Assembly: GCA_017938505.1 (NCBI GenBank)
Contig: JAGBBH010000079.1
Coordinates: 1-51,576, forward strand
Length of the DNA stretch: 51,576 nt
Source of the DNA: Clostridia bacterium
Lineage (GTDB): Bacteria > Bacillota > Clostridia > Christensenellales > UBA1242
Direction: 5' to 3'
Part shown: positions 5,539 through 27,636 of the stretch, in pieces
Numbering within the stretch: the stretch's first letter is position 1
Layout: each line of letters opens with the position of its first letter
Position numbers and translations under genes: made by a program
Notes under the pieces: model-generated
Databases searched by the model: none
Told to the model about the DNA's origin: nothing
Seen by the model: only the letters and a program-made list of their open reading frames with translations

Positions 5539-6645
5539 ATGAATAAAACTTTTGACAAAGAAAGAGAACTAACCTCTTGGTGTGAGTTGATTTTTAAATA
5601 TACGAAAGAAAGAGTTGAAAACGACAGTGTTGCCACAAGATGGATTTTTGATAGAGCAACCCACGATGAATGGGTTTTGGCATTATTTCCTAAACATTTT
5701 GCAAGTGTTAATGCTTACAACCAATTCTTTGAACTAACGGGGCAAGACATTCGAGAATTCAATTGGAACAGCACTGTAACGACTAAAGACAAACAAACTA
5801 TAATCGTTCACCAATTTTTCGTTGACGAGCATCTCACAACCGCCCACGATTTTAAATATGAACTGATTGAATTGTTTAATCAAGGAAATTTGTCCGTTGA
5901 CAAAATCAAAGAACTAATTTCAATGCAAAGATTGTGCTGGATAACAAAAGAAGAAAACAATAAATTGACACAATCTGGGTTTAAAAATCATAGGAAAAAT
6001 CCACTTGACGCTTACCAAACCTGTGGCATAGAAATTTATGATAAAGACAACTGTGATTTAAACATAATGATTCCAACATCACGCAAAACAAATTCTCCAC
6101 ATTTAGAATCAAGCAACCAAATCTTAAAAAACATTCAGAATTTTCTCAACACCCACAAAATTAATGATATGACTTACAATTTAAATTCCTATGCAGGTTC
6201 AAGTTATGCTTGGATATTGAAATTTAACGATTATATGATAAATGTGAGAGTCAAAAAAGAACGATTAAAAGATATTTGTTTATACATTTCTGGCAAAGAT
6301 GCAAAAAGAAAATTTCAAACCTTAAAATCCAAACAACATCAAATTGAATCAGAACTTGGTTATACCCTCGCCTGGGACGAAAACAAAGACAAACAAGCGA
6401 CACGAATAGGTCGATTCTTTAAAAATGCAGACTTATCAACAACCTTTGAACTCTCTCACAAAGATATATGTTTTGATTTCAATGTTGAAGACTGTGAATA
6501 TGCGAAAAAAGTTGCTCAAGAACTGGTCAACTTTGTCAATGTCTTCTGCTCCTATTTTGTTTTTGCAGACAAAGCAGAAGGTTCTAGAAAAAGAAAAATT
6601 CGCAAAAAAAACATTGAAAACTTTTTCTCCGATGAAGAAATATAA
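5539..6645 (+). CDS. Hypothetical protein with unassigned N-terminal domain and DUF4268-like C-terminal region, 368 aa
   Basis: Good RBS and a strong terminator downstream. The C-terminal LKSKQHQIESELGYTLAWDENKDKQATRIGRFF...EDCEYAKKVAQELVNFVNVF fits the DUF4268 pattern (IE.elG..L.W......sRI). I recognise no family for the N-terminal ~200 aa. Confidence 0.6.
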   Translation: MNKTFDKERELTSWCELIFKYTKERVENDSVATRWIFDRATHDEWVLALFPKHFASVNAYNQFFELTGQDIREFNWNSTVTTKDKQTIIVHQFFVDEHLTTAHDFKYELIELFNQGNLSVDKIKELISMQRLCWITKEENNKLTQSGFKNHRKNPLDAYQTCGIEIYDKDNCDLNIMIPTSRKTNSPHLESSNQILKNIQNFLNTHKINDMTYNLNSYAGSSYAWILKFNDYMINVRVKKERLKDICLYISGKDAKRKFQTLKSKQHQIESELGYTLAWDENKDKQATRIGRFFKNADLSTTFELSHKDICFDFNVEDCEYAKKVAQELVNFVNVFCSYFVFADKAEGSRKRKIRKKNIENFFSDEEI

Positions 6646-11740: not shown

Positions 11741-11815
11741 AACCCCTCCTTATGCACAAAAGTCCTCCAATGTCATTATATTATTAATATAGAAAAATTG
11801 TTTAAAGAGGGATTT

Positions 11816-12961
11816 ATGATTTATTTAGATAATTCAGCAACAACTTTCGTCAAACCAAAAAACATTCAAAGAATAATGAGCAATGCATTAAACATATTCA
11901 CAGCAAACCCCGGAAGAAGCGGGCACAAACAGGCAATTAAAACTGCTCTGGCAGTTGAAAATGTTCGTGAACTTGTAGCAAATTATGTAAACACTTCACC
12001 TGAAAAAATTATTTTTACTCTTAATTGCACAGATGCGTTGAATTCAGCAATTCTGGGAACTCACAAAAAGGGAGGGCATATAGTTTGCACAGTTAACGAG
12101 CACAACTCCGTATTAAGGCCTCTGCAACATTTAAAAGAAATTGATTCTGATTTCTCTTTCACAGTGGCGGAACAATCTAAAAGTGGCGGAATCGTTTGGG
12201 AAGACATAGAAAACTGCTTGCAAGACAACACCTATCTTGTAATTGTCAATCACATTTCAAATGTAAATGGTGACATTGCAGACCTAAAAACAATCGGAAC
12301 AGAATTAAAAAAAAGAAACATTCTTTTTCTGGTTGATGGTGCACAAGGCGGAGGTCATTTTAAATATGATATGCAAGGAATGGGAATAAACCTGCTTGCA
12401 TTTGCAGCACATAAAGGTTTCTATTCCCCACAAGGTATTGGTTGCTTATGTTTGAATGGAGATTTTGAAATTTCTCCAATAAGATTTGGTGGCACAGGAA
12501 CAAACTCTTTGGAACCTACTATGCCAGAAAATTTTCCAGAACGACTCGAAGCAGGCACACTCAACACTCCCGCAATTCTCTGCTTTGGAGAAGGCATAAA
12601 ATTTGTTCAAGAAAATTTCAAACAAATTGAAACCAAGACCGAAGATTTAATAACCTATCTTCATTATGAACTGTCAAAACTGCCCGTCAAAATTTATACA
12701 AAAACAGAAAACACATCTGGTGTTTTTGCGTTCAACATTGCCGACATTCATTCACAAGACATTGCAAGTTATCTTGATGAAAAATGGAACATTTGCGTCC
12801 GAGGGGGCTATCACTGTGCTCCGTTGAAGCACAAATCTCTCAAGACCCTTGACCAAGGAGCTGTGAGAGTTTCCATTTCATTTTTCAACACATATCAAGA
12901 AATTGAAAAATTAATTTTTGCAATAAAACATTATTTGAAGAATGAAATAAAAATAATTTAA
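11816..12961 (+). CDS. Class V aminotransferase / cysteine desulfurase, 381 aa
   Basis: I prefer the start at ATG 11816 (MIYLDNSATT), which has AGAGGGA upstream. A PLP-lysine context is present (AFAAHKGFYSPQGIG), and GGYHCAP lies near the C-terminus. Confidence 0.85.
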   Translation: MIYLDNSATTFVKPKNIQRIMSNALNIFTANPGRSGHKQAIKTALAVENVRELVANYVNTSPEKIIFTLNCTDALNSAILGTHKKGGHIVCTVNEHNSVLRPLQHLKEIDSDFSFTVAEQSKSGGIVWEDIENCLQDNTYLVIVNHISNVNGDIADLKTIGTELKKRNILFLVDGAQGGGHFKYDMQGMGINLLAFAAHKGFYSPQGIGCLCLNGDFEISPIRFGGTGTNSLEPTMPENFPERLEAGTLNTPAILCFGEGIKFVQENFKQIETKTEDLITYLHYELSKLPVKIYTKTENTSGVFAFNIADIHSQDIASYLDEKWNICVRGGYHCAPLKHKSLKTLDQGAVRVSISFFNTYQEIEKLIFAIKHYLKNEIKII

Positions 12962-13030
12962 TTATTAAATTTGCCGTTTTTTTATTATTTATTTTTTAAA
13001 AATTGTTTGTTTTTTTTAATTTTATTTATT

Positions 13031-13084
13031 TTTTTTGAATTTTCTTTGTTTTTTTTGAATTTTCTTTGTTTTTTTGAATTTTTT
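13031..13084. repeat. T-rich 20-nt tandem repeat (2.7 copies)
   Basis: TTTTTTGAATTTTCTTTGTT occurs exactly at 13031-13050 and 13051-13070, with a partial third copy. It sits inside a ~200-nt T-rich intergenic region. Confidence 0.8.
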
Positions 13085-13140
13085 ATCAATTTTAAATTAT
13101 TTTTTTTAATTATTAGTTCTAAACACGCCAAAGCTTTTCA

Positions 13141-13181
13141 ATAAATAAAAAAGGTTTGAAAACATCAAACCTCTATTTTTT
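13141..13181. terminator. Bidirectional rho-independent terminator
   Basis: Perfect 8-bp stem AGGTTTGA/TCAAACCT (13152-13172) with a 5-nt loop. An A-run lies upstream and a T-run downstream. It abuts the TAG stop of the minus-strand gene. Confidence 0.75.
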
Positions 13182-13871
13182 ATTATAAATATATCTTTTA
13201 CAATGCTCGCAAGTGATAAATGGCTGCTCTTTCAATTTTGAAATTGCCGCTTTTGGTTGCTCCATTCTACAATGTCCACAAAAAGCTCCGCTTTCTAAAG
13301 GCACAAAAACAGGAAAAATTTTATCATTTCTCTTTTTCTTATATTCTGCCAACAATTCTTGTTGAACGCTTTTCCCTAATTCTGCAAGCTCTTTTACCAA
13401 CTTTTCTTTTTCTGGGACCAAAACAGAATCTTCTTCAGTTATTTTCTTTTTGCAAACATTATAATCATTTCTGATTTTTTCATAAATATCTTTTGTTTTT
13501 TGATATTCTGTTACGATTCTGTTGATTCTTTCCGCTGCTTTTTGCAAAACCTTTTCCAATATGTTCAAGTTTGAAAATATTTTTGATTTTAAAACCGAAA
13601 TTTTTTCAAGTTCTCCCATAGAAAGACCTTCAATGTCTTTTCCCAAGATTTCTTCCGCTTTTGTCTTGTTGAGTTTATGCTTGCTTTTTATCTCTTCAAT
13701 TTCTGTAAGCAAATGTTCTGCATCTTCTTTAAGTTTCTCTGAAATTCTCTTGCTATTTTCAGCCTGAACCCTTAAAGCTTCTGCTTTTTTCTTATATGCC
13801 CCATTCGACATTTTTTGTTCAATTTTATAAAGTTGTTCGTCAAATTTTTGATATTTCAATAAATTTTCCAT
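13173..13871 (-). CDS. Coiled-coil protein with C4 zinc-ribbon (DUF164/COG1579 type), 232 aa
   Basis: A long K/E-rich coiled coil is followed by CGHC....(x17)....CEHC at the C-terminus. Confidence 0.7.
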   Translation of the reverse strand: MENLLKYQKFDEQLYKIEQKMSNGAYKKKAEALRVQAENSKRISEKLKEDAEHLLTEIEEIKSKHKLNKTKAEEILGKDIEGLSMGELEKISVLKSKIFSNLNILEKVLQKAAERINRIVTEYQKTKDIYEKIRNDYNVCKKKITEEDSVLVPEKEKLVKELAELGKSVQQELLAEYKKKRNDKIFPVFVPLESGAFCGHCRMEQPKAAISKLKEQPFITCEHCKRYIYNKK

Positions 13872-16993: not shown

Positions 16994-19900
16994 TTATTTG
17001 TTCATTCTGCCAACAAAACGACCAGTCTTCTTTTTGCGGTAGAACCAAACAAATGCCACCACTCCAAAAATTGCAACCGCACCAGACCCGAAAGCAATAA
17101 CGACATTTTCATTACCCTGTCCTTCGCTTGCACTTTCCGCAGGCGCCGCCTTATATGTAAAATATCCAGGACTGCCCGCAGCATCAATCCTCGCATATGT
17201 CGCATCTGTGTAACTTGAATTAAATGCAGTTCCATTTCCACCAACTAAGGCTTTAGTAGATTGAAACATCTGTATTGATTCTGTAACGGCAGAAATCGAC
17301 CATTTGTCAGAGACATATATTGTTCTTAAAGACGAACAACCAGAAAACATATATCGCATATTTGCAACATTTGAAGTATCAAAATTTGACAAATCTAAAC
17401 TTGTTAAAGATGAACAAAAATTAAACATATAACCCATATATGTAACATTTGAAGTATCAAAATTTGACAAATCTAAACTTGTAAATCTATAGCAACCAGA
17501 AAACATACTTCTCATGTCTGTAACTTTTGAAGTGTCCCATCCTGATAAATCCAAACTTGTAAGTTCCATCTTTCCCATAGCAGCTCCAAATACAGTGACC
17601 ATATTTATCACATTTGAAGTGTCAAAGTTAGAAACATCTAAACTTGTTAGTTTTACACAATTACTAAACATAAGACTTATATCTATCGCTTTAGAAGTGT
17701 CAAAATTAGAAACATCTAAACTTGTTAAACTTTGGCAATTATAAAACATTGAAGACATGTCTATTACATTTGAGGTGTCAAAGTTAGAAACATCTAAACT
17801 TGTTAACTTTTGGCAACTATAGAACATTCCATACATATCTGTTACATTTGAAGTATCAAAACTAGATATATCAAGACTTGTCATTGACTTGCAATACATA
17901 AACATATGTTTCATATTTGTAACTTTAGAAGTATTAAAAGTTGACAAGTTTAAACTAGTTAAAGCATGTTGAAGCCCCAAAATTGATGTTGTAGAAGAAG
18001 TTGCCGCAAACATAAATTCCATATTCGTAGCGTTTGAAGTATCAAAATTGTAAAACTCAATTGCCGTTACCGCCCAAAAAGCGTATAAAGCATAAGAAGC
18101 GTCAACAAGTGCCATTTTCTTGTTTGAAAGCACATAGACCGTTGTGCATCCAGCCCCATAGATTTTTGCCATACCGCTTTCATCTGCAGTCGCATCAACA
18201 CCTGCCAACCCAGAAATAACATTTTCCCCATCTACATAATAAACTTCTTCAGCAGTTTTGTTTCCATTTTCATTGCGATAAAAATCAAACACGATTTTTT
18301 GTGCAGCCTTATCTACCGTCGTATATTCACTCACATTCTTCATAAGCGCATTTAGTTCTTTCCCTGCTTTAAGAAAAACAGGATACTTGTCTGCAATATC
18401 TGTAAAATATCCAGGAAGACCATCTTTGCCGTCAATCCTCGCATAACTCGCGTCTGTGTAACTATCACTATATGTCGTCCCATTTCCACCAACCAAGGCA
18501 AAGCAAGCATCAAACATTCCGTACGAACTCGTAACAGCAGAAGTTGTCCACTTATCCGAAACATAAACAGTTTCCAACAAACAACTATATCCAAACATAT
18601 AGTCCATATCACAAACATTTGAAGTATCAATCCCCGACAAATCTAATTCTGGGACATTCAAATCCGAGTTGACATAACAATATTTGATTGCAGATGCAAA
18701 CATAGAATTTAAATTTTTTACTGCTTTTGCCTTAAAACCACTTAAATTAAGTTCCACTGCTGCACCAACATGTCCACCAAACCAACTGAACATATAGGAC
18801 ATATCTTCCACTTTTGTCGCATCCAAATTCGAAAGGTTCGCATAAACTTTATCCCCATACACTTCATCTGCAAAGGATTCAAACATATGAGACATATTAA
18901 TCACATTTGAAGTGTCAAAACTTGAAATATCTGCCACAACATCACCTGAAGCCTCACTCTTACAATTAAACATATAACTCATATTGGTTGTCTTTGAAGT
19001 GTTAAAGTTAAAGAATGACTCTAGTGATTTTATTCCACCAAAATTTTGAAACATATAACTCGCATCTTCATTCATCATCATTTCTTTTGCAGAAAGAACA
19101 TAAACCGTTGCTCTGCCTGCGTTATAAATCAACGCCTCTCCATTCCCTCCAGCGGTTGCGTCAACCCCTGTCATTCCAGAGATAACATTCGTTCCGTTCA
19201 CATAATAAACTTTCGCTTGTGTTGTGTTTCCGCTTGAATCACGATAATAATCAAACACAATCTTTTGCACAGTCCTATTTGAAGTCGAATATGATGAAGC
19301 ATTTTTCATAAGGGCATTTAGTTCTTGCCCAGTTTTGAGAGCGACCTTATACTTTTCCGCAACATCGGTAAAATATCCAGGAAGACCATCTTTGCCGTCA
19401 ATCCTCGCATATGTTTTGTCTTTGTAACTTGAACTATATTTTGTTCCATTTCCACCAACCAAGGCAGAGCAACCATTAAACATATATGTTGAACTCGTAA
19501 CTGCAGAAGTCGTCCACTTGTCTGAAACATATACAGTTTTTAGATATCGACAATTTTGAAACATATATGTCATATTTGTAACTTTTGAGGTATCAAAACT
19601 TGATAAATCCAAACTTAAATTTGTTGCACTATATCCGCAAGATTGAAACATATATCTCGTATATGTTACACTTGATGTGTCAAAACTTGACAAATTCAAA
19701 CTTAAACTTGTTGCACTATATCCGCAACATGAAAACATAGACCCCATATCTATAACTTTTGCTGTATTAAAACTTGACAAATCCAAACTTAAATTTGTTG
19801 CACTATATCCACAATAATAAAACATAGACGACATATTTGTTACACTTGATGTATCGAAACTTGACAAGTCCAAAGTAAAATTGCTTGCACTATATCCACA

Positions 19901-21667
19901 ATATGAAAACATATTTGACATATTTGTTACACTTGATGTATTGAAATGCGAAATATCCAGTATAAAGTTTGAACTATTATATCCACAACATACAAACATA
20001 CCTTCCATACTGGTTACACTTGATGTATCAAAACTTGATAGGTCTAACTCAAAACTTGTTGCACTATATCCGCAATATAAAAACATAGACGACATATCTG
20101 TTACACTTGAAGTGTCGAAACTTGTCAAATCTAAATTGAAACTTGTTGTCCACTCACCACAAGAAGTAAACATATTTGACATATTTGTAACGCTTGATGT
20201 GTCCCAACCCGAAAGATTTAAACTACCTCCAAACCGCCAACCGCTAAACATCTTTGTCATATTTGTCATACCTGAAACATTCCAACTAGATAAGTCGAGT
20301 TGATTGATGCCACAATTTCCAAACATCTCCTGCACCGAGGCTTTCACAGTCCAGCCAGAAAAGTCTAATGAATTTAACAACACAGTACTACCAAACATAT
20401 AGTCCATCGTCGTTACTTTTTCAACATTCCAATTTGAAACATTAAGGCCTACAAGGTTTCTTGAACCAAAAAACATACCACTCATATCAGTTACATTTGA
20501 GGTGTCAAAACTTGTTAAATCCAAATTAAGCGACGGATTCTCGTTGTCATATTCGCCACAATAAGCAAACATATATGACATATTTGTCGTTTGTGAAGTG
20601 ATAAGGTTGTTAAAGACCGCAGAACCCAACCAATAAAAACCATAGAATGTGTAAGACAAATCTCTCGCCGTTATTTCGCTTAATGACAAAACATAAATTG
20701 TCGAAGTCCCCGCACCATACAGCATTATTTTTCCCGCCTCATCAACATCAACAGGAGTCCCCGACAATCCAGCAATAAGGTTTGTTCCATTTGGAGCATA
20801 CTGTCCTGATGCTGTGTAATAATCAAAAATAATTGAAGTTGTTACCGAATTTTTGACTGTATAATCATCAGCATTTTTCATAAGCGCATTGAGTTGTTGT
20901 CCTGTCTTCAAATATGCAACATTTGCTGGTGCAAGCACTGAATAAGAAAGTCTAACCCCGCAAGATGAGGTGAGATATCTGTTTCTTGCAATGCCTGTGC
21001 TTGTTATGTATGTTGCGTTGTTGATCGTTGTCAAATCTCTTGTCCAATAGTCGCAATATTGCGTGTTAGAAATTCCTGCCATCATACAAACCAAATCGCT
21101 TGCATACGCAACCTTGCTCGTGAAGTTTTCATTAAGTTCATCTTGCGAAACTTGATAAACTCCTGTTGTGGTTATGTTTTCAGATTTCACTGCAATGTTT
21201 GTTCCGTCTGCGTTGAAATAGTCAAACTCTCTTTCAACCTCTGCGGCAAAATTAATTTGACAAGATTCATTTCCAAAGTTCGTGTTATATGCCAAATATT
21301 GTGCACTGTCAGAATATTTCCAGCCTTCGCTTACACTTCCACTTGCAATTGCACCCCAGTCCAAAACCACATCTGAAACCGCTGTCTTTACAACATCTTC
21401 AGTTCTTGAACTTGGAATAATGCTGTCCCTTTCACTTTCTGCAACTCCAAAATCACTCAATCGCCAGCGGATTGGTTCCAACTTATACCAATAAAAACTG
21501 CCAGCAACAAAATTTACACTCGTTCCATCCAATGAAACAGAAACACTCTTTGGTGCTGTCAGTTTTAAATATTCTTCATCGTTATATGTATATACCCCAT
21601 ACAAATTTCCAGCAACAGTCAAAGAATATTGCACAGAAAGTCCTGCAGAGTTTAATGTTGTGTTCAA
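16994..21667 (-). CDS. Giant BspA/DUF285-type leucine-rich-repeat surface protein with C-terminal TM anchor, 1557 aa as tracked
   Basis: There are dozens of 24-26-aa repeats of the form L.LS.FDTS.VT.M..MF..C. Three modules each start with LK(T/A)G.ELNALMKN and end with YVSDKW..SAVT....MF......LVGGNGT....SY.D..YARID...(L)PGYFT. The C-terminal hydrophobic segment VVIAFGSGAVAIFGVVAFVWF is followed by YRKKK. The tracked TTG start has no RBS or signal peptide. The same frame stays open upstream to 21865. Confidence 0.85.
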   Translation of the reverse strand: MNTTLNSAGLSVQYSLTVAGNLYGVYTYNDEEYLKLTAPKSVSVSLDGTSVNFVAGSFYWYKLEPIRWRLSDFGVAESERDSIIPSSRTEDVVKTAVSDVVLDWGAIASGSVSEGWKYSDSAQYLAYNTNFGNESCQINFAAEVEREFDYFNADGTNIAVKSENITTTGVYQVSQDELNENFTSKVAYASDLVCMMAGISNTQYCDYWTRDLTTINNATYITSTGIARNRYLTSSCGVRLSYSVLAPANVAYLKTGQQLNALMKNADDYTVKNSVTTSIIFDYYTASGQYAPNGTNLIAGLSGTPVDVDEAGKIMLYGAGTSTIYVLSLSEITARDLSYTFYGFYWLGSAVFNNLITSQTTNMSYMFAYCGEYDNENPSLNLDLTSFDTSNVTDMSGMFFGSRNLVGLNVSNWNVEKVTTMDYMFGSTVLLNSLDFSGWTVKASVQEMFGNCGINQLDLSSWNVSGMTNMTKMFSGWRFGGSLNLSGWDTSSVTNMSNMFTSCGEWTTSFNLDLTSFDTSSVTDMSSMFLYCGYSATSFELDLSSFDTSSVTSMEGMFVCCGYNSSNFILDISHFNTSSVTNMSNMFSYCGYSASNFTLDLSSFDTSSVTNMSSMFYYCGYSATNLSLDLSSFNTAKVIDMGSMFSCCGYSATSLSLNLSSFDTSSVTYTRYMFQSCGYSATNLSLDLSSFDTSKVTNMTYMFQNCRYLKTVYVSDKWTTSAVTSSTYMFNGCSALVGGNGTKYSSSYKDKTYARIDGKDGLPGYFTDVAEKYKVALKTGQELNALMKNASSYSTSNRTVQKIVFDYYRDSSGNTTQAKVYYVNGTNVISGMTGVDATAGGNGEALIYNAGRATVYVLSAKEMMMNEDASYMFQNFGGIKSLESFFNFNTSKTTNMSYMFNCKSEASGDVVADISSFDTSNVINMSHMFESFADEVYGDKVYANLSNLDATKVEDMSYMFSWFGGHVGAAVELNLSGFKAKAVKNLNSMFASAIKYCYVNSDLNVPELDLSGIDTSNVCDMDYMFGYSCLLETVYVSDKWTTSAVTSSYGMFDACFALVGGNGTTYSDSYTDASYARIDGKDGLPGYFTDIADKYPVFLKAGKELNALMKNVSEYTTVDKAAQKIVFDFYRNENGNKTAEEVYYVDGENVISGLAGVDATADESGMAKIYGAGCTTVYVLSNKKMALVDASYALYAFWAVTAIEFYNFDTSNATNMEFMFAATSSTTSILGLQHALTSLNLSTFNTSKVTNMKHMFMYCKSMTSLDISSFDTSNVTDMYGMFYSCQKLTSLDVSNFDTSNVIDMSSMFYNCQSLTSLDVSNFDTSKAIDISLMFSNCVKLTSLDVSNFDTSNVINMVTVFGAAMGKMELTSLDLSGWDTSKVTDMRSMFSGCYRFTSLDLSNFDTSNVTYMGYMFNFCSSLTSLDLSNFDTSNVANMRYMFSGCSSLRTIYVSDKWSISAVTESIQMFQSTKALVGGNGTAFNSSYTDATYARIDAAGSPGYFTYKAAPAESASEGQGNENVVIAFGSGAVAIFGVVAFVWFYRKKKTGRFVGRMNK
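17325..18050 (-). repeat. Array of ~72-75-nt coding repeats (LRR units, module 3)
   Basis: Successive near-identical units encode LTSLD(V/L)SNFDTSNV..M..MF..C. Confidence 0.8.
19538..20620 (-). repeat. Array of ~78-nt coding repeats (LRR units, module 1)
   Basis: About eight highly similar 26-aa units (LDLSSFDTSSVT.MS.MF.YCGYSA(T/S)..S) occupy ~19538-20170. More divergent units continue to ~20620. Confidence 0.8.
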
Positions 21668-21806
21668 CGAATTTCCAACATAACTTTGCGGATAATATCC
21701 ATCTTCAAAATAGAAATATTGCTTGTCGCCATCATATTTAAGTTCAAATCGCCCGCTAGAGGTAGAATTTGCACTTATTTCACTATCTGCATAAGTTCTG
21801 TTTGGG

Positions 21807-21902
21807 TTAGAAAGAGAACCGCAAATACCCCCCCCCCACGCACAGTGAGGTTGTTGCCAAAATTGCTATCAAAAATCCAAAAATATATTTCCTTATCAAC
21901 AC
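21807..21902 (-). CDS. Leader ORF encoding a signal peptide, out of frame with the LRR gene (5' part of a frameshifted/phase-variable gene)
   Basis: AAAGGAAAAAA is followed by GTG at 21902. The product is (M)LIRKYIFGFLIAILATTSLCVGGG, then YLRFSF and a stop. The basic N-region, hydrophobic core and Cys fit a signal or lipoprotein-like peptide. The ORF ends 18 nt after the G10 tract. Confidence 0.6.
   Translation of the reverse strand: MLIRKYIFGFLIAILATTSLCVGGGYLRFSF
21828..21837 (-). repeat. Homopolymer tract, G10 on the coding strand (C10 on +)
   Basis: Ten consecutive C at 21828-21837 in an otherwise AT-rich sequence. The tract lies exactly between the signal-peptide ORF and the open LRR reading frame. 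Confidence 0.95.
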
Positions 21903-21966
21903 TTTTTTCCTTTAAATTTATATTTTGTTTCAATTCCGGCATAAATCAATTGTCTTTTTCTTTTTT

Positions 21967-21995
21967 ATTATATACAAAAACCATCATTTTTCCAA
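21967..21995 (-). promoter_or_regulatory. Putative promoter of the LRR surface protein gene
   Basis: On the minus strand: TTGGAA (21995-21990), a 17-nt spacer, then TATAAT (21972-21967). The -10 box ends 64 nt upstream of the GTG at 21902. Confidence 0.45.
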
Positions 21996-22082
21996 ACAAT
22001 TTAACAAAATTTCTTGAAAACGAACTTAATTGTTCTATTTTATCTCAAACAACTTGTTTTTGCTTAATGCACCCCCACAACC

Positions 22083-22112
22083 CACAACAAAAAAAGGAAG
22101 TTTTCACTTCCT
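22083..22112 (-). terminator. Rho-independent terminator of the CNNM gene
   Basis: Stem AGGAAGT/ACTTCCT (7 bp) with a 4-nt loop overlaps the stop codon. T8 follows on the minus strand. Confidence 0.7.
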
Positions 22113-23470
22113 TATTTTTCTTCTTGTTCGTCTTTGATATAAGAAATTTTTAAGTTGACTTTTCTAATTCTGTGCCCTTCCATTTTTGTGATTGTAAAAA
22201 TCATATTTATCTTGTTTTGCGTTAAATTCCCTTCATCATCAATGAGTTCATCAATCGTAAAATATTCATAGACTTTTTTGTTCTCTGGAATTTCTTCAGA
22301 CAAATCAAACAAAAACGAGTTGATAGTTTGATATGGGTTTTCTGGAACATTTTCAATTTCAAGTCTATCAAAAAGTTCTTCAACTGAAATTTCTGCATCA
22401 ATGGAATATTCATCATCTCCCACTTGTTCAAGAGCAGGTTCTTTTTCATCTTGGTCGGTTTCATCATAAATTTCGCCAACAATCGTTTCAATGCAATCTT
22501 CCATAGTTACAATTCCGGAAACACCTCCGTTTTCATCAATGACCACCGCCAAATGCTTTTTCGCTTTTTGCATATCTTTAATAAGCGTGTCAATATTTGT
22601 GTTTTCCGCTGTAAAAAGAGGTTTCTTCATAAGTTCTGACAAAACTATATTCTTTCCAGAAATCTTCGCATTGAAAAAATCTTTAATGTTCAAAAGACCA
22701 ACAACATTGTCTGTGTTTTCTTTGTAAACTGGAATTCTTGAGTATTGATGCTCTGAAAATGCCTTTTCAATTTCTTCTACGGTTGAATCAACATTCAAAA
22801 AAACAACATCAACTCTATGCGTCATAATATCGTGTGCAGTCGCTTCTTTAATTTTAAAAGTTCCTTGGAGCATATCCGCTTCGTCTTTGTCCAACATTCC
22901 ATCTTCTTCCATTGTGTCAATGATACTTTCAAGTTCATCAACAGTAACATTGTTGGAATTGTCTTTTTTCTTGGTAAACAATTTTTGCAAACCGTAGAAA
23001 CAAATCACAATTGGATAAAGCACTTTCATAAGCACATATATTGGCCCCGCAACTTTAACCGCAAATTTTTCTGGTCTTGCTTTTGCGAGTGCCTTTGGCA
23101 AAATTTCTCCAGTGATCAAAATTACAATTGTCATCACAACCGTGTTGAGAACATTCATCAAAGCAGGATTATGAGAAAGAAACTGCGAAAAAAGAAACGC
23201 ACAGAGTGTGGTTGAAAGAATGTTTACAATGTTATTTCCAACGAGAATTGTAGTCAAACACCTGTCGTAATGCTCTGAAATGTAAAGTGCCTTTCTTGCT
23301 CCTTTGACTTTGTTCTCAGCCATTCCTCTGATTCTAATTAAATTCATAGAGGTAAGTGCTGTTTCGCTTGCCGAAAAAAACGCAGACAAAAGCAAAAGAA
23401 CAACGATAACCGCAATCAATGCGGCGTGAATAGAACTAAAAGTTGCTAAAAGCATACTGGGGTGATACAT
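22112..23470 (-). CDS. CNNM/DUF21-CBS-CorC_HlyC family transporter (hemolysin-family protein), 452 aa
   Basis: The start was moved to ATG 23470 (MYHPS...), which has AAGGAGAA upstream. The N-terminal DUF21 TM domain contains SASETALTS. It is followed by a CBS pair and a C-terminal transporter-associated domain. Confidence 0.85.
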   Translation of the reverse strand: MYHPSMLLATFSSIHAALIAVIVVLLLLSAFFSASETALTSMNLIRIRGMAENKVKGARKALYISEHYDRCLTTILVGNNIVNILSTTLCAFLFSQFLSHNPALMNVLNTVVMTIVILITGEILPKALAKARPEKFAVKVAGPIYVLMKVLYPIVICFYGLQKLFTKKKDNSNNVTVDELESIIDTMEEDGMLDKDEADMLQGTFKIKEATAHDIMTHRVDVVFLNVDSTVEEIEKAFSEHQYSRIPVYKENTDNVVGLLNIKDFFNAKISGKNIVLSELMKKPLFTAENTNIDTLIKDMQKAKKHLAVVIDENGGVSGIVTMEDCIETIVGEIYDETDQDEKEPALEQVGDDEYSIDAEISVEELFDRLEIENVPENPYQTINSFLFDLSEEIPENKKVYEYFTIDELIDDEGNLTQNKINMIFTITKMEGHRIRKVNLKISYIKDEQEEK

Positions 23471-23641
23471 AATTTTCTCCTTATAATCAAAAAAATAATT
23501 CATTTAAATCATCAGTCATTTGAATGTCTTTGCATTAAAAAACAATGTTTACATAACTAATTTATTTAAATTTCTAGTGTATTATATCACAAAACGCAAC
23601 AAATGTAAAGAGTTTTTGTATCAATTCGTTTCTTCGTCCGG

Positions 23642-23670
23642 TTGACAGCAATTTTTCCGTTTGATATAAT
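23642..23670 (+). promoter_or_regulatory. Consensus sigma-70 promoter of the radical SAM gene
   Basis: TTGACA (23642-23647), a 17-nt spacer, then TATAAT (23665-23670) with TG at -15/-14. Confidence 0.6.
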
Positions 23671-23757
23671 TCTCAATATAGACATATATTTTTATCTTTT
23701 TGCAAATTGCAAAATTCAAATTATTAACAAAAACTTTCAAAAAGGAAAATAAAAGAA

Positions 23758-24600
23758 ATGGCTGAACAGTGTAAAATTTGCCCAAGGGGTTGTTTAATAA
23801 ATAGAGAAAATTCAAAGGGGTTTTGCAATGAGTTCAAACAAATCCGCATTTCAAAAATTATAAAAAATTTTATGTGGGAAGAACCTTGCATAACAGGAAA
23901 CAAGGGTGCTTTGGCCATTTTCTTCTCTGGTTGCAACTTAAAATGTGATTATTGCCAAAACTTTCAAATATCACGAGGAGGGGTTGGAGAAGTTTACTCT
24001 ATTGACGAGTTTGTAAATATAATTGAACAAAATCAAGACAACCACTGTTTTATCGACCTAATCACACCAACACATTTCTCTGATCAGTTGCGTCAAGCCT
24101 TTAAAAAGATAAGCAAAAAAATCCCTGTCGTTTGGAACACAAATGGTTATGAATCAACCACTACAATTGAAAATGTTTCTGAGTTTGTTGATGTTTTTTT
24201 AACAGATTTCAAATATTCAGACAATCTCTTGGCCGAAAAATTTTCAAAATGCAAAAACTATTTTGAGGTTTGCCTTGATGCCACAAAAACGATGTGCGCC
24301 CTCAAAACTGACAAATATGAAAACGACTTAATTTCTCAAGGAGTCCTTATTAGACACCTCGTTTTGCCAGGTCTTGTTAAAAATTCTCTCGCAGTGCTGG
24401 ATTGCATAAAAGAAAACTTTCCAGAAAGAAAAATTAGCCTTATGAGCCAATTCACACCCAACGGACAAAGCGAACTAAACAGGCCTCTTAAGGCAATTGA
24501 ATATAAAACCGTTCTTGCCCATGCTGAAAAATTGCAACTAACAAATGGCTATTTTCAAGACTTTTCAAGCGCAAGTTCCAACTACATTCCAAAATTTTAA
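23758..24600 (+). CDS. Radical SAM protein, PflX-like (pyruvate formate-lyase activase homolog, COG1313 type), 280 aa
   Basis: CKICPRGC.INR....G.C, then EEPCITG..GALAIFFSGCNLKCDYCQNFQIS, which contains the CxxxCxxC cluster. Confidence 0.8.
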   Translation: MAEQCKICPRGCLINRENSKGFCNEFKQIRISKIIKNFMWEEPCITGNKGALAIFFSGCNLKCDYCQNFQISRGGVGEVYSIDEFVNIIEQNQDNHCFIDLITPTHFSDQLRQAFKKISKKIPVVWNTNGYESTTTIENVSEFVDVFLTDFKYSDNLLAEKFSKCKNYFEVCLDATKTMCALKTDKYENDLISQGVLIRHLVLPGLVKNSLAVLDCIKENFPERKISLMSQFTPNGQSELNRPLKAIEYKTVLAHAEKLQLTNGYFQDFSSASSNYIPKF

Positions 24601-24714
24601 CAATTTGCTCTTTATAAACCTTGCAAAAACAGAAAATTTCGTCAATTCATTTGACATAATTTTTATAAAATTTTATCATATTAATATAATTAAAATAATT
24701 TTGCGGAGGAATTT

Positions 24715-25008
24715 ATGTCAAAATCATCTAAAAGATACATATTTTTGGCAATCATCTTCAGTTTGGTTACAATTACTTTTACATTGCTTTATCGCTTTAA
24801 GGTTGTAGCAAGAATGGATTTATATTTGGCAGTTACTTATGTTACATACTTCGTTGGAATCGCCTTGCTTTATAATGGCGCATATGTGAGAGAACACGGC
24901 CACACAACATCTACTGGCATCAACTTTGGTTTTGGAATTTTGTTTATCATTGCCTCAACCGTAATGTTGGTTTATGGTTTAGTAACAGGCATAATTCTTT
25001 TGTTTTAA
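24715..25008 (+). CDS. Small membrane protein (3 predicted TM), 97 aa
   Basis: GGAGGAA RBS, three hydrophobic segments, and a terminator downstream. No family recognised. Confidence 0.55.
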   Translation: MSKSSKRYIFLAIIFSLVTITFTLLYRFKVVARMDLYLAVTYVTYFVGIALLYNGAYVREHGHTTSTGINFGFGILFIIASTVMLVYGLVTGIILLF

Positions 25009-25068
25009 ACAACAACCAAATTTTTAAAAACACCAATTAAAAAAACTTTAAATATTCAACAAAAAAAA

Positions 25069-25093
25069 AGACTGAATTTATCAGTCTTTTTTA
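25069..25093. terminator. Bidirectional terminator between convergent genes
   Basis: Stem AGACTGA/TCAGTCT (7 bp) with a 5-nt loop. A9 lies upstream and T6 downstream. Confidence 0.7.
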
Positions 25094-25110
25094 TTTGTTC
25101 TGTTTTGAAA

Positions 25111-27636
25111 CTAATTGCTCAATCTCTTGATTTCATCAAGCAAACTTTCGAGTTTAGAGTTAATTTCTGCAATTTTCTTTTCAGATTCGTGTTTTGCAAT
25201 AACTGCTTGTGCTTCTTTTTGAAGAACATCAATTTGCTCAATGAGTTCTTCTCTTCTTGTTTGCTTGTCATCAACAGATGCCAAATCCATTTCTTTCATT
25301 GCACTTTCAAGTTCTTTGTTCAAAGCCGCCCTCATTTTGTTGAGTTTTGCTTCTTCTTCTGAAAGTTTTTTGTTGATTTCAACAATTGAGTCAAGTTGTT
25401 TTTTTGGTCTTCCTCTGCCTCTTTTTTCTTGAACGACAGACTCTTCGACCTTAACGATTTTCTTTGGTCTGCCAGCTTTTTTCTTTGGCGCCGGCTCTGC
25501 CACTGAAGTTGATTGAACAATCTTTCTTGGTCTGCCAGGACGCTTCTTTGGAGTTTCAGCTGCAACCTCTTGTTTTGGTTCTTCAACCTTTTCTGCAACA
25601 ATCTTTCTTGGACGACCTCTGCCCTTCTTCTCTTCAACTGGAGCTGTTTGAGCTACAATCTTCCTTGGTCTGCCAGCCTTTTTCTTTTCTGCAACTGGTT
25701 CTTCTTGAACAATCTTTCTTGGTCTGCCAGGACGCTTCTTTGGAGTTTCGACCACAACCTCTTGTTTTGGCTCTTCAACTCTCTTTGTTTCTTTTTTAGG
25801 TTCGTCTAAAGAGAATTCTTCAAAACCATCATCTAAATCTAATGTTTGAGCAACTTCTTCAGGTTTAATCTCTTGAGGTTTTTCTTCTGAAACATTTTCT
25901 TCATTATCGCTTGCGTTTGCAAATTCAATTTCGTTGTCTTTATCAACATCTTTAATTATGTTTTCAGCAACCCCATATAAATCATCTTTTTGTGAAACAT
26001 CAGTAATGAAATCAAATTCATCAAAATCTTCAAAATCCACAACCTTCTTTTCTTCTTGTGGTTCAACAGTTTGAGCTTGCAAAATCAAGGTTCCGTCTTG
26101 AGAATAAACATTTCCTTCAGCATCATGGAAGTTTCCTTGTGGGTCATAGTAAGTTCCATTTGGATAAACATAGTTTCCAAGTTCATCATATTGCCCTTCA
26201 GCATTTGAAACATCTTCAACCACTTCGTTTCCTTGAGAGAGTGTTTCCATATTTGCCGCATCAAATTCGCCTTGTGGAACATTTTTAAGTCTAATTTCAA
26301 GTTCTGTGATATATTGCTTGTTTTGTTCGTTTTCTGCTTTCAATGCTTCTATCTTATCATTGAAAACCTTTGCAACAACCTTTTCTGCACTTTGACAGAA
26401 TCTATTAAAGAAGGTTTGATATTCACCAATCATACCGTTTTCAACATCAGCCTTGAATGTTTCCAACTCTTGATTGAGTTTTGCAATTTCTTCTTCGCCC
26501 TCTTTCTTTTCAAGCAAATATTTTGCTCTTTGTTGTTCAAATTCTTGTTCAAGTTGTTCTTGTTTTGCAACTTCTTGTGTTTGTTGCTTACGATAATAGT
26601 TACTTTCAATTCTGTTTGTTGTTTCTTCTTGCATTTGACGAAGTCTAACAATATTTTCTTTAGATGCTTGAATTTTTGTTTGAGAATCTTTTTGGACCAT
26701 ATCAAAGTTCTTTCTTCTCGAATCAAGTTCCGCTTCCAATTGAGAAACCTTAACCAAAATCTTTTCTTTCTTTTTCAAGAACAATTCGCTTTCTCTCATT
26801 GCTCTTTCAAGAACAATTGAGCCATCGACACCTGTTGATGAAAAATCGTAAACCTCGTGATTGATTTGTTCTTCTTTTGCTTTGTTGAACTCTTCCTTTT
26901 CTTTCCTTGCTTTATAATCCAAGAATTCACGAAGAACTGGTTGTCCCTTTTCAATTTCTTCAGGAGTAAACAAAATTTGATAGTCAATATATGTTGGCAA
27001 ATCAAGGCAAGCATTGTCCATAAATCTTCCAAACAAAGACACATTTTGATAAAGCGAATTCAAGATAGCGTTTTTTCTTGCTCTGAGGAATGCTACAAAA
27101 ATTGAAGAAATGATAACAATGAAAATTGGAACCATAATTGAAAGCACAATGCCGTTACCGGTCAAATAGTCAGTAAAGCTCGTAAGCATCAAAATGAACA
27201 TAGCCACAACAAACGCCCAAATGGTTGAAAAAAGTCCAAGGTTCTTTATGTTAGAGTTGTAAGAACTTGTCTTTAAAGGTTTTTCAACAAGGTTATCCGT
27301 TGAAAGATAAGTCGATGGAGCCCCTTCTCTGAACAATATGTATTGTTGCCAATAATAGCACAGCCTCTTTGGCGCTTTGGTTTTGAAAAGAAAGTTAACA
27401 TCTTTGATGTTTTCCTCCGTTACAACCTTTTGGTCAAAAAGCCAATAGTTAATTTTGTCCAAGGCACGATTCAAGGACGCCTCATAGGAAAATGATGATT
27501 TCACAAGGAAGAAAATCACCAATAAGATTTCCACACCAAGTGCGATAATAAATAACATATCAAAACCAATCAAACGAACAAGGTCTGAGAAGAATGATGC
27601 AATACTATCGACAATACTACACATTGTAGAAAACAT
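25111..27636 (-). CDS. Membrane-anchored coiled-coil protein with six C-terminal AT-hook motifs, 841 aa
   Basis: AGGAGG RBS. Three TM segments lie at aa ~24-46, ~133-155 and ~162-186. K/E/Q-rich heptad-like regions span aa ~230-440 and ~760-841, with an acidic linker between. There are six (K/R)n-x-GRP(R/K)K motifs: KKRPGRPRKIV, KKKAGRPRKIV, KKGRGRPRKIV, KKRPGRPRKIV, KKKAGRPKKIV and KRGRGRPKKQL. Confidence 0.8.
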   Translation of the reverse strand: MFSTMCSIVDSIASFFSDLVRLIGFDMLFIIALGVEILLVIFFLVKSSFSYEASLNRALDKINYWLFDQKVVTEENIKDVNFLFKTKAPKRLCYYWQQYILFREGAPSTYLSTDNLVEKPLKTSSYNSNIKNLGLFSTIWAFVVAMFILMLTSFTDYLTGNGIVLSIMVPIFIVIISSIFVAFLRARKNAILNSLYQNVSLFGRFMDNACLDLPTYIDYQILFTPEEIEKGQPVLREFLDYKARKEKEEFNKAKEEQINHEVYDFSSTGVDGSIVLERAMRESELFLKKKEKILVKVSQLEAELDSRRKNFDMVQKDSQTKIQASKENIVRLRQMQEETTNRIESNYYRKQQTQEVAKQEQLEQEFEQQRAKYLLEKKEGEEEIAKLNQELETFKADVENGMIGEYQTFFNRFCQSAEKVVAKVFNDKIEALKAENEQNKQYITELEIRLKNVPQGEFDAANMETLSQGNEVVEDVSNAEGQYDELGNYVYPNGTYYDPQGNFHDAEGNVYSQDGTLILQAQTVEPQEEKKVVDFEDFDEFDFITDVSQKDDLYGVAENIIKDVDKDNEIEFANASDNEENVSEEKPQEIKPEEVAQTLDLDDGFEEFSLDEPKKETKRVEEPKQEVVVETPKKRPGRPRKIVQEEPVAEKKKAGRPRKIVAQTAPVEEKKGRGRPRKIVAEKVEEPKQEVAAETPKKRPGRPRKIVQSTSVAEPAPKKKAGRPKKIVKVEESVVQEKRGRGRPKKQLDSIVEINKKLSEEEAKLNKMRAALNKELESAMKEMDLASVDDKQTRREELIEQIDVLQKEAQAVIAKHESEKKIAEINSKLESLLDEIKRLSN
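25398..25779 (-). repeat. Tandem duplication (~192 nt x2), each copy encoding three AT-hooks
   Basis: VEEPKQEVVVETPKKRPGRPRKIVQ...KKKAGRPRKIV...GRGRPRKIV is followed directly by VEEPKQEVAAETPKKRPGRPRKIVQ...KKKAGRPKKIV...GRGRPKK. Long identical nucleotide stretches are visible, for example around 25511-25556 and 25707-25750. Confidence 0.8.

Follow-up and report, generated by a model that had tools for sequence, protein, structure and literature searches.

How is a giant surface-protein gene translated when the only plausible start codon, ribosome-binding site and signal peptide near it lie in another reading frame? The question is raised by a 51,576-nt contig from an uncultured Clostridia bacterium (GenBank assembly GCA_017938505.1, contig JAGBBH010000079.1), called the window throughout. 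On its minus strand, a short leader open reading frame (ORF) runs through a homopolymer of ten G residues and stops soon after, and the long body of a surface-protein gene is open across the same run in a different frame. The sequence-only reading took the run to be a slipped-strand phase switch, out of frame as assembled. We likewise read it as a simple-sequence contingency locus that would turn the giant gene ON and OFF, with the window in the OFF state, and give this reading a probability of roughly 0.75. It is supported by recurrence of the ten-G tract (G10) in another assembly, a real protein carrying the fused N-terminus, a conserved tract position, strains that differ as G8 and G9, and intact OFF bodies.

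The tract occupies 21837..21828 of the minus strand (C10 on the plus strand) and is exactly ten nucleotides long. In the window, with its 33% GC, it is the sole run of at least 7 G or C, the next longest being C6, and only 0.002 runs of at least 10 would be expected by chance under independent, identically distributed or first-order Markov models; the earlier impression that it is conspicuous in AT-rich DNA is borne out by these counts. Nor is the run a product of codon usage, since GGG is the rarest Gly codon (14.6% over 12 window genes) and 6 of the 7 other Gly-Gly pairs in the giant gene are encoded by GGT/GGA. At ten nucleotides it exceeds the length of about 7-8 or more at which homopolymeric G/C tracts become prone to slippage.

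Around the tract, the minus strand reads ...AAAGGAAAAAA GTG TTG ATA AGG AAA TAT ATT TTT GGA TTT TTG ATA GCA ATT TTG GCA ACA ACC TCA CTG TGC GTG GGG GGG GGG TAT TTG CGG TTC TCT TTC TAA. The leader ORF begins at GTG 21902, encodes the 31 residues (M)LIRKYIFGFLIAILATTSLCVGGGYLRFSF and ends at 21809-21807, its stop falling 18 nt past the tract. As it stands in the G10 state (21807..21902, minus strand), it consists by translation and hydropathy of a signal-like stretch of 25 residues, MLIRKYIFGFLIAILATTSLCVGGG, then 6 out-of-frame residues and TAA. The frame of the body is free of stops from 21865 onwards; the earliest ATG, GTG or TTG in it is TTG 21667, which would give a product of 1557 aa. When the tract was edited in silico, a single ORF resulted from G9 (1635 aa) and from G12 (1636 aa), joined through ...SLCVGGG(G)ICGSLSNPNRTYADSEISAN, and G8, G10, G11 and G13 all met a stop after 31-42 codons. 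A change of one unit within the ORF thus toggles between a full-length and a short product. The original claims that one G fewer or two more would join leader to body, and that the body frame lacks a start before TTG 21667, hold at the level of both coordinates and translation.

Could translation simply begin at TTG 21667? The segment of the body frame between the tract and that codon encodes ...YADSEISANSTSSGRFELKYDGDKQYFYFEDGYYPQSYVGNS, including the motif KQYFYFEDGYYPQSYVG, and the corresponding pattern KQYFYFxDGxYPQSYVG is invariant in family members that are only 33-40% identical overall. The coding sequence must therefore begin further upstream, and TTG 21667 cannot be the true start; the doubts already expressed about this codon were well founded, as a conserved N-terminal domain begins before it. 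The sole start, ribosome-binding site and hydrophobic leader available are those that precede the tract in the other frame, so the leader must supply the start. The predicted short ORF with its ribosome-binding site is present: a Shine-Dalgarno-like AGGA at 21908..21911 (minus strand) lies 5 nt before GTG 21902 and 8 nt before an alternative start, TTG 21899. Two related NCBI proteins (P0034 and P0122, described below) begin, with MIRKY..., at the position matching TTG 21899, and in both the leader is retained and joined in frame.

The leader had been described as a secretion or lipoprotein-type signal, and only the first half of this description finds some support. The secretion-type arrangement of n-, h- and c-regions is present, with a hydropathy peak at residues 5-20, and homologous leaders carry canonical AxA sites just before the Gly run (predicted cleavage after INA and before GGG, or after ALA and before GGE); the signal-peptide call is based on these two features. 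A lipoprotein-type signal was rejected, as neither Cys lies in a canonical lipobox: the pattern [LVI][ASTVI][GAS]C is not matched by ...TSLC or ...GGIC, which put L or I at -1. In the family alignment, the Cys of the window leader is not conserved.

What would the joined frame encode? The body proper comprises 1610 codons past the tract plus a stop (16994..21827, minus strand) and joins the leader's frame only when the tract is G9 or G12. Family membership was judged by tandem repeats of ~25-26 residues scoring above the curated cut-offs, and the joined protein matches both Pfam DUF285 (PF03382; E 1.3e-170, 557.8 bits against a cut-off of 25, in 11 stretches) and NCBIfam TIGR02167, the PARCEL repeat-containing surface protein family (E 2.8e-154, 499.4 bits against a cut-off of 30, in 19 stretches). 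Its database homologues carry the name 'BspA family leucine-rich repeat surface protein'. The repeats form three DUF285/PARCEL modules with linker modules between them (17222..20614, minus strand), with a periodicity of 78-87 nt at the DNA level. Just two segments of the protein are hydrophobic, at about residues 5-30 and 1598-1621, and these hold the sole hydrophobic 19-mer windows. By hydropathy, the second is a C-terminal transmembrane anchor, VVIAFGSGAVAIFGVVAFVWFY (17039..17110, minus strand), followed by the basic tail RKKKTGRFVGRMNK and no LPXTG motif. The joined product thus looks like a giant secreted, membrane-anchored DUF285/PARCEL (BspA-like) surface protein, its secretion being predicted from the leader; the earlier description of a giant leucine-rich repeat protein of 1557 aa with a C-terminal anchor agrees with these matches and with the single C-terminal hydrophobic segment.

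Ahead of the repeats is an N-terminal domain of ~300 aa (20882..21754, minus strand), defined by alignment and recognizable by KQYFYFxDGxYPQSYVG ... EPIRWRVSD ... ASDLVC ... YWTRDL. It belongs to an unannotated family, with no match in Pfam or NCBIfam, for which an exhaustive profile search gave 421 representatives at E<=1e-3. Elsewhere the domain occurs mostly at the C-terminus of other large proteins and sometimes stands alone (P0126-P0130 among the proteins looked at). Its AlphaFold model has a predicted local distance difference test score of 44.7, too low to assign a fold.

If the tract is a switch, relatives should be found in both states, and a comparison of related loci had been proposed as a check. 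Relatives were collected by full-length protein search, cluster look-up and exhaustive profile search; word-indexed protein searches with the N-terminal region gave few matches and overlooked clear relatives, even the window's own protein. One protein in the in-frame (ON) state is P0034 (MBP3619117.1, 954 aa), from a metagenome-assembled genome (MAG) labelled Clostridia bacterium. It starts MIRKYFFGFLIAILAITSLCVGGGICGSLSN, or at greater length MIRKYFFGFLIAILAITSLCVGGGICGSLSNLSITYADSEMSAKSTSSG..., and includes ...SLCVGGGICGSLSN..., so that its N-terminus is exactly the junction predicted for the ON state. A second protein, P0122 (MBP3619836.1), starts ...SLCVGVGICGCLPNSQKVYADSEISAN (...SLCVGVGICG) and is also in frame, with its Gly run interrupted. 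An interrupted run is as expected of a stabilized, 'locked-on' allele, and at the DNA level we would expect a run broken by one substitution (GGGGTGGG-like). Judging from their accession range, the two proteins are probably from the same MAG.

More distant relatives supply both states at the DNA level. P0022 (1678 aa, ~37% identical) has been called from a TTG and lacks a signal peptide; upstream of it, in contigs L007 and L008, is ATG-MKKLMYAIFVSLISMIVAIPLSINA, then G8, out of frame. Adding one G there predicts ...NAGGGLSSAANQNTSYTEEK..., and this ON product exists as P0124, a protein of 1725 aa from the Joint Genome Institute (JGI) collection that begins MYAIFVSLISMIVAIPLSTNAGGGLSSAANQNTSYTEEK and includes ...NAGGGLSSAANQ.... 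P0124 is encoded on the 242-kb contig L010 (JGI 3300031555; L010:1189-15178), which holds three tandem DUF285 paralogues, every one of which has a leader and a tract of its own. The tract of gene 1 is interrupted (GGGTGGGGG) and in frame; that of gene 2 is G8 and OFF, with an intact ORF of 1676 codons once edited to G9; and that of gene 3 is G9 and ON. The same G9 is found in contig L011, which comes from a different JGI sample and does not differ from L010.

The third gene of this array provides the comparison between strains. In L007 it has G8, against G9 in L010 and L011, and gene-3-specific sequence flanks the tract region on both sides; L007 is for this reason better evidence than L008 that the same gene can be G8 in one strain and G9 in another. 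L008 is 99.94% identical to gene 3 of L010, from which it differs by two substitutions and the tract, all three differences being the states of the gene-2 leader. Within L010 itself, only 3 sites and the tract separate the leaders of genes 2 and 3 over a stretch of about 340 nt, a pattern suggestive of gene conversion of the 5' module.

In a DNA alignment, the G10 of the window (21828..21837) and the G8 or G9 tracts of L007, L008, L010 and L011 fall on equivalent codons at the signal peptide's end, where the candidate switch encodes a Gly run. More distant members have GCAGGTGGAGAG (GGE, in L009), GVG (P0150) or GDG (P0155) at this site. The P0127 locus, which has no homopolymer, has no bearing on the comparison. 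Across the family, the tract is G8, G9, G10, interrupted or absent, and the comparison that had been proposed shows a tract at the homologous position with lengths both in and out of frame. Of 8 G/C runs of at least 8 in 205 kb of fetched DNA, 7 are at a leader/body junction. The eighth, at L003:6217-6224, is a G8 that lies in frame in a short gene of cupin type (KPGGVFEW) in a related MAG and has no connection with the surface protein family.

The same locus was sought in other samples of the species, which is carried by SAMN15830102, SAMN15830132 and SAMN15830107. Contig L001 (ENA, sample SAMN15830102), an independent assembly, is 99.73% identical to window 27423..21435 over 5989 nt, with 16 mismatches in an ungapped alignment; its leader matches that of the window, and its tract is likewise G10. 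Past window position 21435 it diverges sharply into another body allele (L001:5989-6624), 96.8% identical at the protein level to MBP3619836.1 (MBP3619836.1-like, 1176 aa). Sample SAMN15830102 holds both body alleles, the L001 type and the window type (L014), and the locus is accordingly hyper-allelic within the species. With its conserved 5' module and variable body, the locus is reminiscent of surface antigen families of the cassette type. In L001 the giant gene meets an in-frame stop 28 nt short of where the contig breaks off (L001:6560-6624; product 279 aa); this stop may mark a truncated allele or be an artefact of the contig's end. In a further sample, SAMN15830132, contig L005 stops at window position 21854 and L012 takes over at 21655, leaving 198 nt uncovered. 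The tract is in this gap, which corresponds to a region that is identical among known alleles; the break could fit tract heterogeneity or poor reads alike and proves neither. Scans of JGI metagenomes, by a leader/tract pattern with a variable G run and by protein alignment with leader plus N-terminal domain, gave no matches and no further tract-spanning assembly.

Homopolymers are error-prone, and the break on both sides of the tract in SAMN15830132 suggests that reads are troublesome there. Could the true length be G9, with an intact, constitutive gene and a frameshift that is an artefact of assembly or sequencing, as the in-frame proteins of relatives might suggest? We consider this the least probable of the alternatives, and very improbable in itself. 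Two independent assemblies, 16 substitutions apart, both give G10, and this recurrence argues against an assembly error. Lengths that break the frame are also seen in other members and other studies (G8 in L007, L008 and gene 2 of L010), so that an artefact would have to be repeated at just this site. Consensus errors from short reads are uncommon at 10-nt runs.

Several observations weigh against a reversible switch. Both assemblies that span the tract at this locus have G10, and no G9 or G11 variant of the exact allele was found. The window leader itself has neither a canonical AxA site nor a lipobox. The tracts of the ON proteins P0034 and P0122 are deduced from peptide rather than read as DNA. 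Finally, the G8/G9 pair that looks cleanest, formed by L008 and gene 3 of L010, may reflect gene conversion or assembly cross-over as well as slippage, given that all three differences match gene-2 leader states.

That both sampled genomes have G10 also fits recoding, in which G10 would be the standing genotype and a low, constitutive level of full-length protein would arise by RNA polymerase slippage or by a +1 slip of tRNA-Gly on GGG GGG. A slip from GGG to the overlapping GGG is compatible with the codons and would give the same product as G9 (...CVGGGICGS...), and 'riboshifting' was raised as an alternative for the G10 tract of a Mycoplasma agalactiae P48-like gene (Nouvel et al. 2010, PMC2824730). 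However, relatives have leader and body in frame, both in DNA (G9 in gene 3 of L010 and in L011) and as proteins (P0124 and P0034), and no downstream stimulatory element was noticed, in an analysis that included no search aimed at one. Tract length and frame vary in the family, the opposite of what a conserved programmed shift site would show, and this disfavours recoding as the main mechanism; we regard it as unlikely in that role. For the same reason, the locus was not classed as a programmed frameshift or transcriptional slippage gene, in which the shift site and the out-of-frame arrangement are conserved in orthologues. Recoding may add leakiness on top of a DNA switch, and the two are compatible.

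Two OFF genomes out of two would also be expected if the frameshift were a recently fixed inactivating mutation, leaving a young pseudogene in a hypervariable surface locus with no reversible switching. The locus is in flux, being absent from two relatives (L002 and L003) and having divergent alleles within the species, and the stop near the contig end of the L001 copy points in the same direction. The state of the body argues otherwise: 1624 codons are open in the window without a second lesion in a 33% GC genome, and the other OFF bodies, of 1676 codons (gene 2 of L010) and 1678 (P0022), are likewise intact. Moreover, the lesion sits exactly at a selected-looking tract made of the rarest Gly codon, whose position is conserved across paralogues with both ON and OFF lengths. 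The intact body and the family pattern together make a plain pseudogene quite improbable, only slightly less so than a length error.

How would the proposed slipped-strand switch work? Translation from GTG 21902 or TTG 21899 would produce a signal peptide ending in Gly-Gly-Gly, residues specified by the run. Slipped-strand mispairing in replication would change the run by one G in either direction. With G9 or G12, the leader would be in frame with the 1610-codon body and the protein would be displayed; with G10 (as in the window), G8 or G11, translation would end after 31-42 codons and the protein would be absent. Both G9 and G12 should give functional protein, because the run encodes small residues in the c-region or at the start of the mature protein, as at the homologous cleavage sites given above. 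In related organisms with several tandem genes, each with its own run, a population could express different combinations. Reversibility, rate, secretion and an adhesin-like role are all inferred parts of this proposal.

Similar arrangements are known from other bacteria, the nearest being in mycoplasmas. In M. agalactiae, a G10+/-1 tract separates the signal peptide of the P48-like lipoprotein (MAGa1620) from the annotated ORF, and P68 of M. bovis has G8-10 among strains, with G9 giving the full-length protein (Nouvel et al. 2010 and work cited therein, PMC2824730). As here, the poly-G is in the 5' coding sequence and sets an intact signal peptide apart from the frame of a surface-protein body, and as here, the genomes have low GC, the host is (in our case apparently) a ruminant and phase variation was deduced from comparing strains. 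The mycoplasma proteins are true lipobox lipoproteins of wall-less Mollicutes from unrelated protein families, whereas the window, from a Clostridia-class MAG lineage, has a leader resembling the signal peptidase I type and a 1635-aa PARCEL protein with a C-terminal transmembrane anchor.

The repeat family itself has been connected with contingency tracts. PARCEL/DUF285 lipoproteins of M. agalactiae (MAG1330 and MAG3260) and M. capricolum have homopolymeric or dinucleotide contingency tracts, which in M. capricolum lie 5' of the PARCEL genes (Roske et al. 2010, PMC2996958). These share with our locus the repeat family (DUF285 = TIGR02167 = PARCEL) and the occurrence in multi-copy gene families; they are Mollicutes proteins of a few hundred residues, whereas the Clostridia genes encode 1100-1700 aa and an additional, unannotated N-terminal domain. 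For BspA-like genes of 'Candidatus Mycoplasma girerdii', length heterogeneity of simple sequence repeats was measured in metagenome reads, and the consensus was often OFF (Costello et al. 2017, PMC5476646). That system, too, is a BspA-like surface repertoire of an uncultured, host-associated bacterium, turned ON and OFF by repeat length and discovered through metagenomics. Its repeats are dinucleotides (e.g. CA10) rather than poly-G, and heterogeneity was measured there in reads, whereas the present comparison is one of assemblies and database proteins.

Further afield, poly-G/C contingency loci occur in Campylobacter jejuni, Neisseria and Haemophilus, and repeats within signal-peptide coding regions include the CTCTT of Neisseria opa and the CT of Helicobacter outer membrane protein genes. 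As a group, these systems resemble ours in having an intragenic G/C tract of at least 8 near the 5' end of genes for surface structures, translational ON/OFF control and a tract in a part of the protein that tolerates changes in length. They differ in belonging to Gram-negative pathogens, in encoding unrelated proteins and in having switching rates that were measured experimentally. Literature on the subject includes work on the Neisseria phasome (PMC5953494) and a homopolymeric tract survey (PMC2831843).

The poly-G mechanism is thus already known, and for this repeat family it has been put forward in Mycoplasma; what is new is the host lineage. Phase variation in gut commensals has been charted mostly through invertible promoters and methylation, and simple-repeat switches mainly in pathogens and mycoplasmas. 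We found nothing specific in the literature on the same phenomenon in rumen or gut Clostridia, although such a negative carries little weight. Ruminant gut metagenomes may be the source of the samples, to judge by labels such as XIEF21-1. Together, the data suggest that uncultured low-GC Clostridia, apparently from the ruminant gut, switch giant BspA-like adhesins by poly-G runs, sometimes in tandem. If true, MAG annotation would be affected, with such genes at present called N-terminally truncated and without a signal peptide, and so would the reading of strain-level surface diversity from metagenomes.

A more far-reaching idea is that the signal peptide and poly-G form a portable, conserved 5' cassette for giant PARCEL adhesins of ruminant-gut Clostridia, with tandem arrays giving combinatorial surface variation, and that the likeness to M. 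agalactiae is due to co-transfer between gut Firmicutes and mycoplasmas rather than convergence; or else that G10 is a stable resting genotype expressed by +1 slippage. We regard this as unlikely, if a little less so than recoding as the main mechanism.

The gene lies in a chromosomal setting. The upstream neighbour of the giant gene is a CNNM/CorC gene (463-aa ORF), and downstream are dnaG and the primary sigma factor gene, with addAB further on. A contig scan with CorC gave distant MAGs only, the nearest genome relatives being two labelled Clostridiales/Clostridia bacterium, with CorC proteins 74% and 69% identical (another match was 36%). In these nearest relatives (L002 and L003), no giant gene is found between corC and dnaG, and we thus consider it a lineage-specific insertion.

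The giant gene probably has its own transcription unit, since a terminator-like hairpin with a T-run (22094..22113, minus strand; inverted repeat I2) lies behind the CNNM/CorC gene. A promoter-like TTGGAA-17-TATAAT at 21967..21995 (minus strand), ~65 nt upstream of the start, is the best match in the region (10/12); it is a consensus match only, and promoter-like sites are as numerous as in shuffled sequence. An inverton was rejected as the basis of switching: the inverted repeats in 21600-22200 are limited to the hairpin of the corC terminator and short AT-rich ones attributable to chance. An Rfam search gave no match near the locus.

Elsewhere in the window, an 841-aa ORF at 25111-27636 (minus strand) has no match in Pfam or NCBIfam and carries a 54-nt tandem repeat in its interior (25625-25730); L001 and L005 both have this ORF conserved. 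A T-rich array of about 4 copies of a 19-20-nt tandem repeat (12980-13093) is intergenic, between the ORFs at 11798-12961 (plus strand) and 13173-13871 (minus strand). The sole Rfam or ARAGORN match in the window is a tRNA-Ser (CGA) at 709-799 on the plus strand. Finally, two samples differ by a 53-nt indel with 17-nt direct repeats (TTAAAGAATCGACCTAT) on either side, located at about 6403-6422 in the window and at L012:15253-15287; it alters the ORF at 5539-6645, of the DUF4268 family, which has 368 aa here and is called with 307 aa in L012.

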